Virus record (IMG/VR): IMGVR_UViG_2558860161_000008
Span: 1-43,817 of that record
Strand: one strand, 5' to 3'
Source of the DNA: a virus
Taxonomy: Duplodnaviria; Heunggongvirae; Uroviricota; Caudoviricetes
Length of the DNA stretch: 43,817 nt
Below the pieces are notes generated by a model. It worked only from the letters and a program-made list of their open reading frames with translations, was not told the DNA's origin and ran no database searches. Below are positions 14,813-27,016 of this stretch, in pieces; within the stretch, counting starts at the first letter, position 1, and the number at the start of each line of letters is the position of its first letter. The position numbers and the translations under genes are program-made.

Positions 14813-15865
14813 ATGAAAAATACTGTAAATATAAACAGTGTTGAGCTTATCAACGCTGACTGCCTGCAATACCTCGCAACCCTCCCAGATAACACCATCG
14901 ACCTTATTGTTACGGATCCGCCTTATTTTAAGGTGAAGCCGAACGGCTGGGATAATCAGTGGAACGGTGACGCCGACTATCTTCGCTGGCTTGATATGTG
15001 TCTTGCCCAGTTCTGGCGAGTGCTTAAGCCTGCCGGCAGCCTGTATTTGTTTTCAGGTCACCGACTTGCATCCGATATTGAGATCATGATGCGTGAACGC
15101 TTCAACGTCATGAACCACATTATCTGGGCGAAGCCATCAGGGCGTTGGAACGGTTGTAATAAAGAAAGCCTGCGCTCTTACTTCCCCGCGACGGAACGCA
15201 TCCTTTTCGCTGAGCATTATCAGGGGCCATATAAGCCGAAAAGCGACGGATTTGCTGAGAAAAGCAACGAGGTCAAACAGCACGTCATGGCTCCGTTAAT
15301 CACCTACTTTCGTGATGCACGAGCCGAACTGGGGGTCACGTCCAGGCAAATAGCTGACGCTACCGGAAAGAAAAATATGGCGTCTCATTGGTTCGGTACC
15401 AGTCAGTGGCAACTACCAAACGAGCAGGATTACGAAAAGCTGCAGGAATTGTTCACTCAGATCGCCATTGAGAAGCACCGCGCCTCTGAACTCAAAGCAC
15501 CGCATCACCAGCTGGTGGCCACATGGCATTCGTTGAACCGGAAATACCTTGATCTGCTGGAAGAGTACAAATCTCTTCGGCGGCATTTCTCTGTGACAGT
15601 AGCCGTGCCCTATACAGACGTCTGGACACATAAACCCGTCCAGTTCTATCCAGGCAAACACCCGTGCGAAAAGCCCGCTGATATGTTGCGGCAAATCATC
15701 AACGCCAGCAGCAGGCCCGGCGATGTGGTAGCTGATTTCTTTATGGGCTCGGGATCAACTGTTAAAGCAGCCATTGAACTGGGCCGCCAGGCTATCGGCG
15801 TAGAACTGGAAGAGGAACGTTTCAACCAGACGGTAAGTGAGGTAAGGCAGCTGGCATGGGAATAA
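14813..15865 (+). CDS. Orphan DNA methyltransferase (N6-adenine/N4-cytosine type, DPPY motif)
   Basis: 350 aa; N-terminal DPPY catalytic motif and C-terminal FMGSGST AdoMet-binding motif. Confidence 0.8.
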   Translation: MKNTVNINSVELINADCLQYLATLPDNTIDLIVTDPPYFKVKPNGWDNQWNGDADYLRWLDMCLAQFWRVLKPAGSLYLFSGHRLASDIEIMMRERFNVMNHIIWAKPSGRWNGCNKESLRSYFPATERILFAEHYQGPYKPKSDGFAEKSNEVKQHVMAPLITYFRDARAELGVTSRQIADATGKKNMASHWFGTSQWQLPNEQDYEKLQELFTQIAIEKHRASELKAPHHQLVATWHSLNRKYLDLLEEYKSLRRHFSVTVAVPYTDVWTHKPVQFYPGKHPCEKPADMLRQIINASSRPGDVVADFFMGSGSTVKAAIELGRQAIGVELEEERFNQTVSEVRQLAWE

Positions 15866-15935: not shown

Positions 15936-16151
15936 ATGTATCGAATGGAAAAAATCACGACGGGTATTGCATACGGCGCATCGGGAGGGGGGGCCGGATA
16001 CTGGTTGCTCCAGCTCCTAGATAAAGTCTCCCCATCTCAATGGGCGGCCATTGGTGTGCTCGGTAGCCTCATGTTTGGTTTGCTGACGTGGTTAACGAGT
16101 CTGTACTTCCAAATCAAAGCGGATCGCCGCAAAGCTGCGCGGGGTGAATGA
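15936..16151 (+). CDS. Holin, S21-type pinholin
   Basis: 71 aa; near-identical pattern to the phage 21 pinholin (TGIAYG...[14 protein letters not shown]...DRRKAARGE). Confidence 0.8.
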
Positions 16152-16687
16152 TGTCGAACAAAGCAAAGCTCAGCGCAGCAGTGCTGGCGCTAATCGCGTC
16201 AGGGGCATCTGCTCCACTCATTTTCGACCAATTCATCAGCGAGAAAGAAGGCAATGCGCTGTTGGCCGTTGTTGATCCGGGTGGGGTCTGGTCTTTATGT
16301 CACGGCGTGACCGTTATCGATGGCAGGCGTGTTGTTAAGGGCATGACGGCCACTGAGGAACAATGCCGGAAGGTTAACGCTATTGAACGCGATAAGGCAT
16401 TAGCCTGGGTTGATCGCAATATCAAAGTGCCTCTGACAGAGCCACAGAAGGTGGGTATCGCATCCTTCTGCCCGTATAACATCGGCCCCGGTAAATGCTT
16501 CCCATCGACCTTCTATAAGCGCATCAACGCAGGTGACCGCATCGGTGCATGCGAGGCAATCCGCTGGTGGATTAAAGACGGTGGCCGTGATTGCCGTCTA
16601 ACCAAAGGCCAGAAGAATGGCTGCTATGGTCAGGTTGAGAGACGGGACCAGGAAAGCGCGCTGGCGTGCTGGGGGTTAGACCAATGA
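16148..16687 (+). CDS. SAR endolysin (lysozyme)
   Basis: 179 aa; Gly/Ala-rich N-terminal signal-anchor-release segment and lysozyme-like core; overlaps the holin stop. Confidence 0.8.
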
Positions 16688-17205
16688 AAATTAATCCGGG
16701 TCTTATAGGCGTTGTTGTTATTGCTGTCCTTTCGGTCGCTCTCGCTAAGAGTTGCTCCAACGCCAGTCGCCTTCAGAGCGATAACGACGTTCTGCGAAGT
16801 GACAACTCTATGCAGGGGCAGGTGATCGCCACCCAGGCATTCAACTTCAATCGGTTCAATCAGGTTGCAGAACATGCCAACAGGCTAAACTCCCTGATCG
16901 ACACCAGCACCGAAGAAACTGTAATCGAATACCGGGAGATTCTCCGCCGTGAAAAAACCTGTGATCTGCCTGTTCCTGCTGATGTCGCTGGTGGGCTGCT
17001 CGAATACGCGCACCGTTTACGTGCCAGCGCAATGCACGCCGATACCGACGGACCTAACGCAGCCGATGATAGTACCGCTGCCGCCGGCTCAATAACGTAC
17101 TGCCAGGCTGTGCTCTGGATTAAGCCGCTACTGGCAACGATAGAAAAGGGTAATAACAATTTTTCCGGTATACGGGAGATTGAGAATAACCGCGCAATGC
17201 GATAA
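16684..17205 (+). CDS. Spanin, Rz-like inner-membrane subunit
   Basis: N-terminal TM segment (LIGVVVIAVLSVALA) then coiled-coil periplasmic region; ATGA coupling to the endolysin gene. Confidence 0.55.
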   Translation: MKINPGLIGVVVIAVLSVALAKSCSNASRLQSDNDVLRSDNSMQGQVIATQAFNFNRFNQVAEHANRLNSLIDTSTEETVIEYREILRREKTCDLPVPADVAGGLLEYAHRLRASAMHADTDGPNAADDSTAAAGSITYCQAVLWIKPLLATIEKGNNNFSGIREIENNRAMR

Positions 17206-17289
17206 CTATCACAGTTTCACTCGGTGGTTAGCTTGATAAGGATAAAAAGGACTCCATGATGTAGATTCTGATGCTAATAAGGATAAAAA

Positions 17290-17589
17290 ATGATTTTTCC
17301 CATTGTGAAGTCTGTCTACATCAACAGCAAAACTGATAGTCGTTTAATACGTTATGATGTTATTCGTACTGACCCCGATACCTACCTCGTCAAAGTTTTC
17401 GATAATCAACAGCGTGGAATTTCGGTACCAGGCCTGATTAGTCAAATTTCCGAGTTCGAAATAACTCGTGCTGCCTATAATGAAAAATATCAGGTGGGTA
17501 ATCGCGTAGTCGTGAAAATGAATGCGGACCCCGGATTTGAAAACACCATTGATGGTGAGTTGCAAGCACATCGAGATAGTTTGTCGTGA
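17290..17589 (+). CDS. Hypothetical protein (99 aa), AT-rich moron
   Basis: ORF preceded by a duplicated ATAAGGATAAAAA element and followed by a terminator. Confidence 0.45.
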   Translation: MIFPIVKSVYINSKTDSRLIRYDVIRTDPDTYLVKVFDNQQRGISVPGLISQISEFEITRAAYNEKYQVGNRVVVKMNADPGFENTIDGELQAHRDSLS

Positions 17590-17616
17590 AAACAACCGCC
17601 TCCGGGCGGTTTTTTG
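17590..17616 (+). terminator. Rho-independent terminator
   Basis: CCGCC-tccg-GGCGG hairpin followed by TTTTTTGTTT. Confidence 0.5.
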
Positions 17617-17637
17617 TTTCTGCATGGGGAAGAAATT

Positions 17638-18276
17638 ATGGCTGCTCTTAAGAACCTTATTCAGCAGTTGAATCAAATGCAAAAGCAAATTCCATTTGCG
17701 ACAGCTCAGGCTATGACCAAAGTTGTACGCCAGATAGAGACGGCACAGAAAACAGCGTTTGAACGTCATCTGGAGAGCCCTACACCGTTTACTGTTAAAT
17801 CAGTTGGTTCGGTTGCTGCGAGAAAGAACAACCTGACCGCAAAGGTTTTTGTCCGTGATACTGCGGCTGGCTATCTGGAACCATTCGAGTTTGGTGGAGA
17901 GCACAAGCTCAATAGCCAGGCTCTTTTGAACCCCAAGAACGTCAAACTGAACAAATACGGCAACATGCCGCGCAATAAGCTCTCACAGCTTAAAGCAAAG
18001 GAAAATGTATTCGTAGGTGAGGTGGATGGCATTAACGCTGTCTGGCAGCGTAAGAAGCCGATGAAAGCTAAGAAGCGACGGGCCAAGCGCTCCGCTAATG
18101 GGACGCGAAGGCCGAAACGTAAACAGCGTTCTCCAAAGCTTTTGATCCGGTTTGGTGATGCGCTACCTGTGACTCCAGTGCTGGGGTATATGGATAGGGC
18201 CCGTACCATGGCGAACGCACTGCTACCGTCTGCTTTAAATCAGGCGATAGCAGAAGCCATCAGGACGGCAAAATAA
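17638..18276 (+). CDS. Hypothetical phage protein with a basic K/R-rich segment
   Basis: ATG at 17638 with GGGGAAG RBS; 212 aa; KKPMKAKKRRAKRSANGTRRPKRKQR stretch suggests nucleic-acid binding. Confidence 0.5.
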   Translation: MAALKNLIQQLNQMQKQIPFATAQAMTKVVRQIETAQKTAFERHLESPTPFTVKSVGSVAARKNNLTAKVFVRDTAAGYLEPFEFGGEHKLNSQALLNPKNVKLNKYGNMPRNKLSQLKAKENVFVGEVDGINAVWQRKKPMKAKKRRAKRSANGTRRPKRKQRSPKLLIRFGDALPVTPVLGYMDRARTMANALLPSALNQAIAEAIRTAK

Positions 18277-18286
18277 AAGCAGTAAC

Positions 18287-18790
18287 TTATAAGTTAATTT
18301 CGCAAGCTTTTATGAAGCTGTTTACTGCAGTTGTCGATCCAGAAACATTGGCTGACATGGAATGCTGGTTTCCGCCATCCTTTGTTTGCACACCAACTAA
18401 CACTTTGGATTTCGCCCCCTGAAGCTGCTTAAGCACTGTTTTTAGTTGGTCCGCGTCATCCGATTGAATCTGGAGGCTCTGAACATTACGTCTTGAAAGG
18501 GTAGCATCGAGCTTCACTGCGGTATTCCCGTCGACCTTCATTATCAGGTCCATTGGTACCTCTGATAGTGATTCGGTGCTTTTATCCATTTCAACGTATG
18601 CCGCCGATAGCTTTTCTTTAGTGCAGTCAAACACAATGGCGCCATTGTCGGATGAAACTTCGCCAAGCATCATTGCTTTCTTACCACCAGAGAAAAGGTC
18701 ATCTTCAGTATTAGTCACCCACTGGGCATGAGCAATTGGTGATGCCAGCACTGCGGCTACGAAAGTTATTTTGATTATATTGTTACCCAT
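18287..18790 (-). CDS. Secreted/periplasmic hypothetical protein (signal peptide), reverse-oriented moron
   Basis: ATG at 18788-18790 with AAGGAG RBS; N-terminal MGNNIIKITFVAAVLASPIAHA signal peptide; occupies the lambda bor-like position between lysis and packaging genes. Confidence 0.55.
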   Translation of the reverse strand: MGNNIIKITFVAAVLASPIAHAQWVTNTEDDLFSGGKKAMMLGEVSSDNGAIVFDCTKEKLSAAYVEMDKSTESLSEVPMDLIMKVDGNTAVKLDATLSRRNVQSLQIQSDDADQLKTVLKQLQGAKSKVLVGVQTKDGGNQHSMSANVSGSTTAVNSFIKACEINL

Positions 18791-18933
18791 TACATTCTCC
18801 TTGTATTGAATAGGAATAATCATAGTCGGAGCGAATGGTCGAAGCCATTAAAAAAATGGGTCCTTCCTGAGACTTTTGTAAGGTACGGGCATTGCGCGCC
18901 GCGGTGTTTTCCTAGCTACAACTTTCAGATTTG

Positions 18934-19081
18934 TGTCCCATGTCCCACCTCTGGCGATCATTACGGACACCTCGCCAGCTCTGGCTATTCCAGTTTATTC
19001 CAGTGGGACATTCTGGTGGGACATGGCAAAAATGTCCCAGGCGAATGTCCCACCCCAGAAAATGTCCCAGGTGATGTCCCA
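18934..19081. repeat. Array of 8 TGTCCCA/TGGGACA heptamer repeats (candidate terminase-binding cosB-like site)
   Basis: Copies at 18934, 18941, 19004 (rev), 19017 (rev), 19033, 19045, 19063, 19075; the last overlaps the small terminase start codon. Confidence 0.6.
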
Positions 19082-19650
19082 TGACCACGATGAACCAGAG
19101 TCAGTACGCACAACATTCAGGTGTGGATCGCAAAACAATTGGTCGGTGGATTAAAGCCGGGCGCTTCATTGTGATGGACGGAGACCTGATTGACGTAGAG
19201 GCCAGCGATGCGGCATTGAAGAAAAACCGCGATGGCAAAGACCCGCGCGCCTCGAACGCGAAGAAAAAGAAAACTCCCGTCGTTAGCGATAACGATGATG
19301 ACGGTGATGAAATCAATAAAACTGTCCGCCAGATAATGCTCACTGAAGGGGCAGATCTTTCGAGAGAGGAAGCGGGACGTATCCGCGAGAATTACATGGC
19401 CCTGCAGGCAAAGCTGCAGTATGAAAAAGACAGCGGCCAGCTTATTGAGCTGACAGCAGCCGAGGAGGTTTTATTCAACGCCTTTCGCCAACAGCGTGAT
19501 GCCTGGCTTAACTGGCCGTCCAGGGTGGCGCCGCTAATGGCTGCTGATCTGGATGTACCGGCGGACAGGATGACAGAGGTGCTGATTGAACATGTCCACA
19601 AACACATCTCAGTCCTCGGAGAGCCAGAGTTTAACCCGGCAGAAGATTGA
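19081..19650 (+). CDS. Terminase small subunit (Nu1-like)
   Basis: 189 aa; N-terminal HTH-like segment, acidic middle, position before the large terminase with overlapping ends. Confidence 0.7.
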   Translation: MTTMNQSQYAQHSGVDRKTIGRWIKAGRFIVMDGDLIDVEASDAALKKNRDGKDPRASNAKKKKTPVVSDNDDDGDEINKTVRQIMLTEGADLSREEAGRIRENYMALQAKLQYEKDSGQLIELTAAEEVLFNAFRQQRDAWLNWPSRVAPLMAADLDVPADRMTEVLIEHVHKHISVLGEPEFNPAED

Positions 19651-26631: not shown

Positions 26632-27012
26632 ATGGCAAAACAACCTAATACCGGGCTGGCTGATGATCTGAATGCAGAAGGATCTGCCAAAGACGGCCTG
26701 AGCGTTGACGACCTGAATGCTGGCGATAACACCCAGGAAAAACAGCCTTTGAGCAAAACAGATGATGCCGAATTGTCTGTTGATGACGATGGTGGTGACG
26801 AAAAATCCGGAGACACTGAATCGCAGGAGTATGTGGTGTTGAAAGGGAATTGCATTCGTCATGACGGGGAGATGTACCGCGAAAATATGCGCATCCCTGT
26901 AACCGGCAAAGATGCTGAGCGTCTTCTGCAGTCCGGCGTTATTGCTGATGTTGATGTGCTTCGTAAGCGAGTTCTTGCTTCTCAGCCATCAGTTTCAGTT
27001 ACGACAGGGTAA
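26632..27012 (+). CDS. Hypothetical head-associated protein, acidic N-terminal half
   Basis: ATG at 26632 directly after capsid stop; 126 aa. Confidence 0.5.
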   Translation: MAKQPNTGLADDLNAEGSAKDGLSVDDLNAGDNTQEKQPLSKTDDAELSVDDDGGDEKSGDTESQEYVVLKGNCIRHDGEMYRENMRIPVTGKDAERLLQSGVIADVDVLRKRVLASQPSVSVTTG

Positions 27013-27016
27013 TGAC

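Follow-up and report, generated by a model that had tools for sequence, protein, structure and literature searches.

Does the region between the lysis and the packaging genes of a temperate phage hold one island of accessory genes, or does it consist of units that have to be considered separately? This question was raised by IMG/VR virus record IMGVR_UViG_2558860161_000008, an E. coli prophage that represents a temperate phage of Enterobacteriaceae. The whole stretch that was analysed, 43,817 nucleotides (nt), is called the window. Between its lysis and packaging genes lie three open reading frames (ORFs) of 99, 212 and 167 amino acids (aa), the last one in reverse orientation, and we refer to them as ORF99, ORF212 and ORF167. 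An earlier reading made from the letters of this DNA (the sequence-only reading) had placed all three in one accessory island and proposed them as morons with roles in lysogenic conversion or exclusion. We favor, with reasonable rather than high confidence, a division into three separate units: a moron with ORF99, a conserved late gene (ORF212), and another moron with ORF167. The term moron suits ORF99, an AT-rich mobile cassette, and ORF167, a presence/absence cassette, but it does not suit ORF212, which is a conserved anchor. Anatomy, homology, synteny and presence/absence polymorphism were observed; promoter activity, the timing of expression, a location in the virion and all phenotypes are predictions. 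The elements described in the sequence-only reading were all confirmed at their positions, namely a 13-nt sequence that occurs twice beyond chance, an ATG-ATG-TAG mini-ORF, an AT-rich 99-aa ORF that ends at a terminator, a 212-aa protein with a lysine/arginine-rich (K/R-rich) tract, and on the opposite strand a 167-aa signal-peptide protein with its own ribosome-binding site (Table 1).

The gene neighborhood of ORF212 carries much of this division. The terminase small subunit gene (terS) follows the ORF212 homologue on the same strand in 74 of 80 viral contigs. The homologue is located directly 5' of terS/terL in Citrobacter phage phiNP, Serratia phage BZS1 and Acetobacter phage phiAP1, and it is the final gene of the linear genomes of Pseudomonas phage F10 and Rhodobacter phage RcCronus. 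Among E. coli genomes, the segment spanning ORF212 and terL is 94-96% identical, whereas the lysis cassettes and the small genes 5' of it differ. ORF212 is labelled hypothetical in all of the E. coli genomes checked. Conserved homologues mark all three ORFs as real genes; those of ORF212 were found in more than 990 protein clusters, and its large family comprises 1191 clusters when grouped at 50% identity.

Profile comparisons relate this family to lambda gpZ. ORF212 matched the PHROG family phrog_1924 ('minor tail protein') with an expect value (E) of 6e-61 and, weakly, phrog_27 ('tail completion or Neck1') with E of 0.0018. Lambda gpZ is a member of phrog_27 and gave a reciprocal match to phrog_1924 at E 1.9e-4. 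Full-length matches of ORF212 family members to phrog_27 reach 6e-8, and hhalign aligned the family with gpZ end to end (E 5e-4). The Pfam family Minor_tail_Z (PF06763) was matched by 8 of 114 diverse family members, and P0275 alone exceeded its gathering score (31.2 vs. 23.9 bits). Like gpZ, ORF212 is one of the late morphogenetic genes in a lambda-type cos phage, is of similar length, has the N-terminal motif …L..L….IPfAtA.A.t..a… and contains a basic tract (RRRRRKK in gpZ). Unlike gpZ, it falls below the Pfam threshold, has a long K/R insert and goes together with a contractile Mu-type tail, and its gene is the last one on the other side of cos instead of lying between the head-closure and tail-terminator genes. 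The order of predicted secondary structures (helix-helix, strands, helices) is compatible with the gpZ-type fold, which has a long N-terminal helix, a beta-hairpin/loop region and a C-terminal helix, but unreliable. These comparisons support the view that the ORF212 family is a distant sister of lambda gpZ and not a member of PF06763 itself. SPP1 gp16.1, HK97 gp10, 80alpha gp51, Mu gpG and P2 gpS are functional analogues of gpZ-type proteins. The HK97 gp10 family (PF04883) and the Mu gpG family (phrog_26) were also considered as relatives of ORF212 and rejected, with no significant hhalign alignment to either; HK97 gp10 and Mu gpG fall in phrog_5 and phrog_26, respectively.

By its synteny and its relation to gpZ, ORF212 is probably a conserved late virion gene that encodes a distant gpZ-type tail-completion protein. 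The sequence-only reading had named conserved structural or packaging homologues as the outcome that would speak against it, and for ORF212 such homologues are what the data indicate. Tail-completion proteins are essential, present at low copy and often invisible in reconstructions; that of 80alpha is located inside the neck end of the tail and touches both the tape measure and the DNA end, and in Mu and P2 the gene has lost its canonical position (PMC11661146, PMC11099176). Like other tail-completion proteins, ORF212 would act in a few copies within the neck end of the tail, in contact with the tape measure and the DNA end. It would be made from a Q-dependent late transcript that continues past the terminator and, on circular or concatemeric DNA, across cos. 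Between the head-closure and sheath genes of the window, no further tail-completion gene can be recognized, and F10 and RcCronus have none annotated at the canonical position.

Several observations weigh against a gpZ-type function of ORF212. The gene lies about 9 kb before the head-closure gene, 5' of cos and terS, which is not the canonical position of a gpZ gene. The hhalign probability for the alignment with gpZ was only 30%. ORF212 itself has no match in Pfam, and none was found in NCBIfam or PADLOC, or by direct BLASTP against lambda gpZ. A small ORF212 alignment (A2) gave no significant hhalign result with gpZ and gp10, and profile searches of the PDB with the ORF212 alignments A2 and A6 gave no meaningful match. 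The AlphaFold2 (AF2) model, made from a 25-sequence alignment in which all sequences are at least 79% identical, had a predicted local distance difference test (pLDDT) score of 43, and therefore no fold search was possible. Virion inventories likewise do not contain the protein. Mass spectrometry of excised gel bands from BZS1 virions identified 13 proteins and the ORF212 homologue p72 is not among them (PMC7556043), and the 12 structural proteins in the cryo-electron microscopy inventory of R4C apparently do not include an ORF212 homologue; both methods are insensitive to a protein at 1-6 copies.

An alternative, which we regard as unlikely, is that ORF212 is a packaging or ejection accessory associated with cos or the DNA end, and not a tail-completion protein of the virion. 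Its gene would then be kept beside cos for a DNA-binding role, with the basic tract binding DNA. The invariable location of the gene beside cos/terS in very distant phages agrees with such a role, as do the K/R-rich tract, the failure to detect the homologue in BZS1 and R4C, and the weakness of the relation to gpZ. However, the reciprocal profile links between the ORF212 and gpZ families, several of them full-length, speak for tail completion, and without ORF212 the phage would have no recognizable tail-completion gene. The K/R tract is found in enterobacterial members and is shorter or absent in those of Rhodobacter, Pseudomonas and Yersinia, and many members of the family are without it. In the window, this tract plausibly contacts DNA. 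Moreover, gpZ-type proteins are themselves low-copy, missed in structures and proposed to bind DNA ends, and therefore the tail-completion and packaging-accessory readings overlap.

An extension of the gpZ-type assignment, which we consider improbable in its full form, is that the phrog_1924 family constitutes a distinct cos-linked class of tail-completion proteins that would recognize the last-packaged (right) DNA end and hand it to the tail. The gene would be the last one before the cohesive end across Proteobacteria because its product recognizes the right DNA end. If true, this class would make it practicable to address the long-standing proposal of gpZ binding to one specific DNA end. The placement of a gpZ-like gene beside cos, from Escherichia to Rhodobacter, is not remarked on in the literature cited here, and it could help to find tail-completion genes in other genomes. 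An annotation trap is also removed by this analysis. Although annotated as hypothetical and located in the 'bor slot', ORF212 is probably not cargo but essential for the virion, and deleting or engineering such 'accessory' prophage regions would be expected to inactivate the phage.

ORF99, located between Rz and ORF212, appears to be the cargo of an autonomous moron of promoter, gene and terminator that is mobile and AT-rich. The GC content of ORF99 is 38-42%, compared to 52-55% in the flanks. The intrinsic terminator behind it has counterparts elsewhere: equivalent hairpins follow the ORF99 homologues in L012 (the same hairpin) and L014, and terminators are found just 5' of the ORF99 cassette in L021 and L022. 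The match of the window to E. coli prophages carrying other cargo starts at the 17594 terminator. ORF99 homologues form 27 protein clusters, from Enterobacterales throughout. An alignment of 19 sequences contains 16 invariant residues, and ORF99 is therefore a real protein. We examined its gene context at ten loci. In all ten, the homologues (41-99% identity) lie after the lysis genes and shortly before terS, and the packaging genes beside them are of the gpA type, Terminase_2 with Terminase_6N, Terminase_2 with Terminase_3, Terminase_3, or unassigned. Of 5426 complete E. coli genomes, only 3 contain ORF99 (3 of the 61 matching genomes), as does 1 of the 80 viral contigs with the ORF212 gene. 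A downstream terminator, an atypical composition, and presence or absence between related phages together with occurrence in unrelated backgrounds, by which morons are recognized, are thus all found for ORF99. The complete moron would comprise a sigma-70-like promoter, its own Shine-Dalgarno (SD) sequence, the AT-rich gene for a cytoplasmic 99-aa protein and the intrinsic terminator.

ORF99 resembles the lambdoid morons (Hendrix/Juhala; HK97 gp15, lambda bor and lom) in being an additional gene with a promoter-like element and a terminator, an atypical composition, and presence or absence between otherwise similar phages. Unlike these named examples, neither ORF99 nor ORF167 is related to Bor, Lom or gp15 in sequence or family. 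For ORF99, there were no matches in Pfam, NCBIfam and PADLOC, no meaningful match in a PDB profile search, and none by tblastn against phage records. Residues ~17-50 (RLIRYDVI..D.DTY.VKV.D.QQ.GIS.PS) weakly resemble the E-F strands of fibronectin type III/immunoglobulin domains (titin, E 0.0035; unproven). The slot between Rz and ORF212 contains other genes in related phages, including KilA-N, DUF1883 and a DNA polymerase III theta-like gene in related prophages (L001-L003, L004, L005); phiNP has a gene annotated as a sialyltransferase there. The terminator at 17594 is common to cassettes with different cargo. Prophage L019, which has an ORF99 homologue, carries a gene for an Ivy-family periplasmic lysozyme inhibitor (1253-1666) in its lysis-to-packaging region.

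How might ORF99 be expressed? The sequence-only reading had described a duplicated ribosome-binding site and a start-stop mini-ORF in the leader. Both elements are present, but the stop codon and the SD sequence of the mini-ORF are not conserved among homologous leaders, and the mini-ORF falls on a promoter-like -10 element instead. The 13-mer ATAAGGATAAAAA has no further exact copy in the window besides the two in this leader. In the whole window, only one other exact 13-mer direct repeat has a spacing of 60 nt or less. Because a first-order Markov simulation expects a mean of 0.06 such repeats per window, and ~6e-4 for the local AT-rich 400 nt, the pair is not due to chance. Copy 1 has 12 of 13 matches in L012, the closest relative, and is absent from the remaining five related leaders; a purine-rich SD sequence is found at the ORF99 position in all homologues. 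The exact duplication appears to be recent and lineage-specific, restricted to the window and L012.

Seven homologous leaders were alignable. None of the seven departs from TTGA (within cTTGA(T/A)A) or from CCATGATG, and the distance from TTGATA to CATGAT is constant at 16 nt with a divergent spacer sequence. The codon after ATGATG is TAG in four leaders and TAA, TAT and AAG in one each. An SD sequence ahead of the mini-ORF is present only in the window lineage, and five of the seven leaders are without it. TTGATA-N16-CATGAT is most likely the promoter of the ORF99 cassette, with an activity predicted from its conservation, and the mini-ORF ATG ATG TAG most likely represents mainly the -10 region of this promoter. 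The leader RNA had no significant structure (folding z +0.84) and no match in Rfam.

Some findings do not favor the promoter. Its -10 element CATGAT is imperfect. Promoter-like sites were no more common than in shuffled sequences (3 found, 3.6 expected), and therefore it is conservation that makes the case for this one. Conservation extends beyond a -10 hexamer, over the block CCATGATG-(N3)-(A/G)TTC, and a stop codon has been kept in five of seven leaders, including a change from TAG to TAA. Because of this retained stop and the longer block, the mini-ORF may have a residual role on late read-through transcripts.

Start-stop or minimal upstream ORFs (uORFs) occur in bacterial 5' leaders, as found in retapamulin ribosome profiling (Ribo-seq) studies. 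ATG-ATG-TAG could be such a translated uORF that tunes ORF99 translation with an SD sequence derived from the duplicated 13-mer, for example by holding ribosomes on late read-through transcripts. In the window it has the appearance of one, with a start codon, an immediate stop and AAGGA suitably spaced (4 and 7 nt 5' of the first and the second ATG, respectively) ahead of a gene. The invariance of CCATGATG, the stops just mentioned and a duplication beyond chance are also in its favor. We nevertheless consider it improbable. Two leaders have a sense codon (TAT or AAG) in place of the stop, most have no SD sequence to initiate at the mini-ORF, and the entire promoter/mini-ORF element is missing from three more distant ORF99 homologues. 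The hallmark of such uORFs, an SD-preceded start-stop, is present in the window but is not conserved in the homologous leaders. A uORF would have no use for the other conserved block, TTGA(T/A)A at a constant distance of 16 nt 5', which suits a promoter, and if the promoter is real, its transcripts begin 3' of the mini-ORF. Comparison of the homologous leaders therefore makes the apparent start-stop uORF better read as a promoter.

ORF167 is located on the other side of ORF212 and appears to be the second moron, a discrete presence/absence cassette inserted antisense between ORF212 and cosN. In blastn comparisons, homology to the 'empty' relatives L127, L146 and L012 stops at the ORF212 stop codon and restarts at 18857, and the empty site is ~17 nt long. 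The cassette ends 33 nt from cosN. Among 74 contigs, the slot from ORF212 to terS is empty (~134-250 nt) in 25, contains ORF167, always antisense, in 27, and contains other cargo in 22. ORF167 was found in 30 of the 80 ORF212-bearing viral contigs and is absent from phiNP, BZS1 and L012. Its homologues form 33 protein clusters. The two most distant ones lie within Mu-type tail clusters, in forward orientation between the tape-measure gene and the gpN-like gene, and the ORF167 gene therefore moves between slots; adjacency to the tape-measure gene is shared with HK97 gp15. Two moron slots with exchangeable cargo, Rz-to-ORF212 and ORF212-to-cosN, are delimited in this way, and their exact cassette boundaries help the mining of lysogenic-conversion or exclusion genes.

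Alternative cargo in the ORF212-to-terS slot includes a reverse ORF of ~95 aa in several contigs; others have forward ORFs of 117, 139 and 237 aa. The contigs with such cargo are L105, L133, L145 and L149 (~170-460 nt after the ORF212 homologue), L123, L156, and L167-L169. In the window, the tape-measure gene and the gpN-like (DNA_circ_N) gene are 340 nt apart, and this gap, which is the slot of the distant ORF167 homologues in other prophages, contains a 48-aa ORF (32477-32623) with a hydrophobic N-terminal segment. This ORF may be another small moron reminiscent of HK97 gp15.

The reverse ORF as listed extends from 18287 to 18823. An ATG at 18790, preceded by the strong SD sequence AAGGAG, gives the 167-aa product. 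The protein has the signal peptide MGNNIIKITFVAAVLASPIAHA followed by QW at a signal peptidase I site, and two invariant cysteines, C56 and C163. Its AF2 model is confident (pLDDT 85) with an IalB-like fold. The similarity to IalB (PDB 3DTD) is at the fold level only, with 13% identity, and neither the Pfam scan nor the PDB profile search gave a sequence-level signal. Unlike ORF167, IalB is alphaproteobacterial and chromosomal. Because of the low identity and the missing profile signal, and because IalB itself has no known molecular mechanism, this likeness gives no function. Foldseek found nothing significant in the PDB (template modelling (TM) scores up to 0.33) and only uncharacterised phage proteins in BFVD (TM-scores ~0.5); the PDB profile search with alignment A4 gave no meaningful match. 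Sub-threshold matches of ORF167 to SigF (NCBIfam, E 0.015) and Type I specificity (PADLOC, E 0.007) were regarded as chance.

The sequence-only reading had placed ORF167 in the slot where lambda carries bor. This holds for position and orientation, and like lambda bor, ORF167 is antisense and envelope-targeted between the lysis genes and cos. It does not extend to the protein, as the signal peptide of ORF167 ends with AHA before QW with no lipobox cysteine, and no Bor family match was found in the Pfam scan. Unlike the named lambdoid morons, ORF167 is predicted to be a soluble periplasmic protein, neither a lipoprotein nor a membrane protein. It would most likely be exported as a disulfide-containing periplasmic protein that acts on the cell envelope of the lysogen, through superinfection exclusion or host interaction. 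A smaller possibility is that ORF167 is a new periplasmic superinfection-exclusion factor with an IalB fold that moves between cos-proximal and tape-measure-proximal slots.

A point against the moron assignment of ORF167 is that no consensus promoter was found on the minus strand in 18791-18960, and no terminator after the ORF167 stop codon. The same lack of a clear independent promoter would agree with a function of ORF167 in the phage cycle, as a lysis or entry helper acting in the periplasm, and not as a conversion gene expressed in the lysogen. The forward orientation of the distant homologues inside the tail operon points in this direction too. We consider such a function quite improbable. 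ORF167 is dispensable, as ~60% of related contigs lack it and so do phiNP and BZS1, which are viable phages. Its orientation here is antisense to late transcription, and a Sec signal peptide is not expected in a protein that is assembled into tails in the cytoplasm. An envelope-directed moron remains our preferred assignment of ORF167.

That all three genes form one accessory island of lysogenic-conversion or exclusion morons is very improbable: the location where lambda carries bor, the lack of a Pfam assignment for any of the three and a GC content of the whole ORF99-ORF167 stretch below that of its flanks would fit, but ORF212 is kept with the packaging module while its surroundings are swapped, it belongs to a gpZ-related family, and ORF99 and ORF167 are distributed independently among the contigs, so that for ORF212 the island is largely refuted by synteny. 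Homology searches gave each protein a family of its own, with ORF212 related to gpZ, ORF99 in phrog_31348, and ORF167 in phrog_19473 with its IalB-like fold and no link to Bor. The region is an ordinary, neatly organised part of a phage genome.

Table 1. Features of the lysis-to-packaging region and of the neck genes, in window coordinates
Feature	Position	Strand	Description or basis
Holin	15936-16151		P21-type
Lysozyme	16148-16687		
Rz	16684-17205		
Rz1	16949-17095		Embedded in Rz
Candidate promoter	17233-17260	+	Sigma-70-like; -35 TTGATA, 16-nt spacer, -10 CATGAT; consensus scan, 9/12
13-mer, copy 1	17236-17248	+	Covers last 3 nt of -35 element and promoter spacer
Mini-ORF	17256-17264	+	ATG ATG TAG; overlaps -10 element
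13-mer, copy 2	17277-17289	+	SD region (AAGGA) of ORF99
ORF99	17290-17589	+	Small cytoplasmic protein; phrog_31348 (PHROG E 6.5e-56)
Intrinsic terminator	17594-17621	+	Hairpin 17594-17611, 7-bp GC-rich stem, then T-run TTTTTGTTT
ORF212	17638-18276	+	gpZ-like (phrog_1924), probable tail-completion protein; last gene before cos
K/R-rich tract	18049-18138	+	RKKPMKAKKRRAKRSANGTRRPKRKQRSPK, about aa 138-167 of ORF212
ORF167 cassette	18277-18856		580-bp insertion vs. 'empty' relatives; blastn vs. L127, L146, L012
ORF167	18287-18790	-	Secreted periplasmic protein (Sec signal peptide); phrog_19473; two invariant Cys, IalB-like fold
cosN	18889-18900	+	12-nt cohesive end GCATTGCGCGCC; unique exact match to BZS1 end
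(A/G)TGTCCCA repeat cluster	18933-19081		Both orientations; between cosN and terS start codon
terS	19081-19650	+	Terminase small subunit; first gene right of cos; phrog_57 (E 4.6e-36)
Head-closure gene	26912-27376		
181-aa gene	27373-27918		Directly 5' of sheath gene; phrog_6774

The region forms the right end of a cos-packaged temperate phage that combines lambdoid regulation and lysis with a lambda-type head and a Mu-type contractile tail. On the 3' side of terS come a gpA-type terL, gpW, the portal gene, and gpC-, gpD- and gpE-like head genes. The tail sheath of the window and Mu gpL share 37% identity. The 181-aa gene located 5' of the sheath gene presumably encodes a tail terminator or sheath-completion protein. 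Because it has no detectable similarity to Mu gp37, the inventory of neck genes stays incomplete. A megablast search of the region against deposited phages gave a match at the Rz end only.

The position of cos was taken from Serratia phage BZS1, in which the 5' cohesive end was determined experimentally (PMC7556043), and the sequence left of cosN in the window matches the right terminus of BZS1. Between cosN and the terS start codon, the repeat cluster contains seven of the eight exact copies of ATGTCCCA in the window plus one GTGTCCCA. The second close 13-mer repeat of the window, AAAATGTCCCAGG, at 19029 and 19059, lies within this array. The repeats are probably a cosB-like binding array for terS.

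At the other end of the region, a gene for an N6/N4 DNA methylase (14813-15865) is located just 5' of the holin gene in the late region. The same order, with a methylase before the holin, is found in Citrobacter phage phiNP, in which dam precedes hol.

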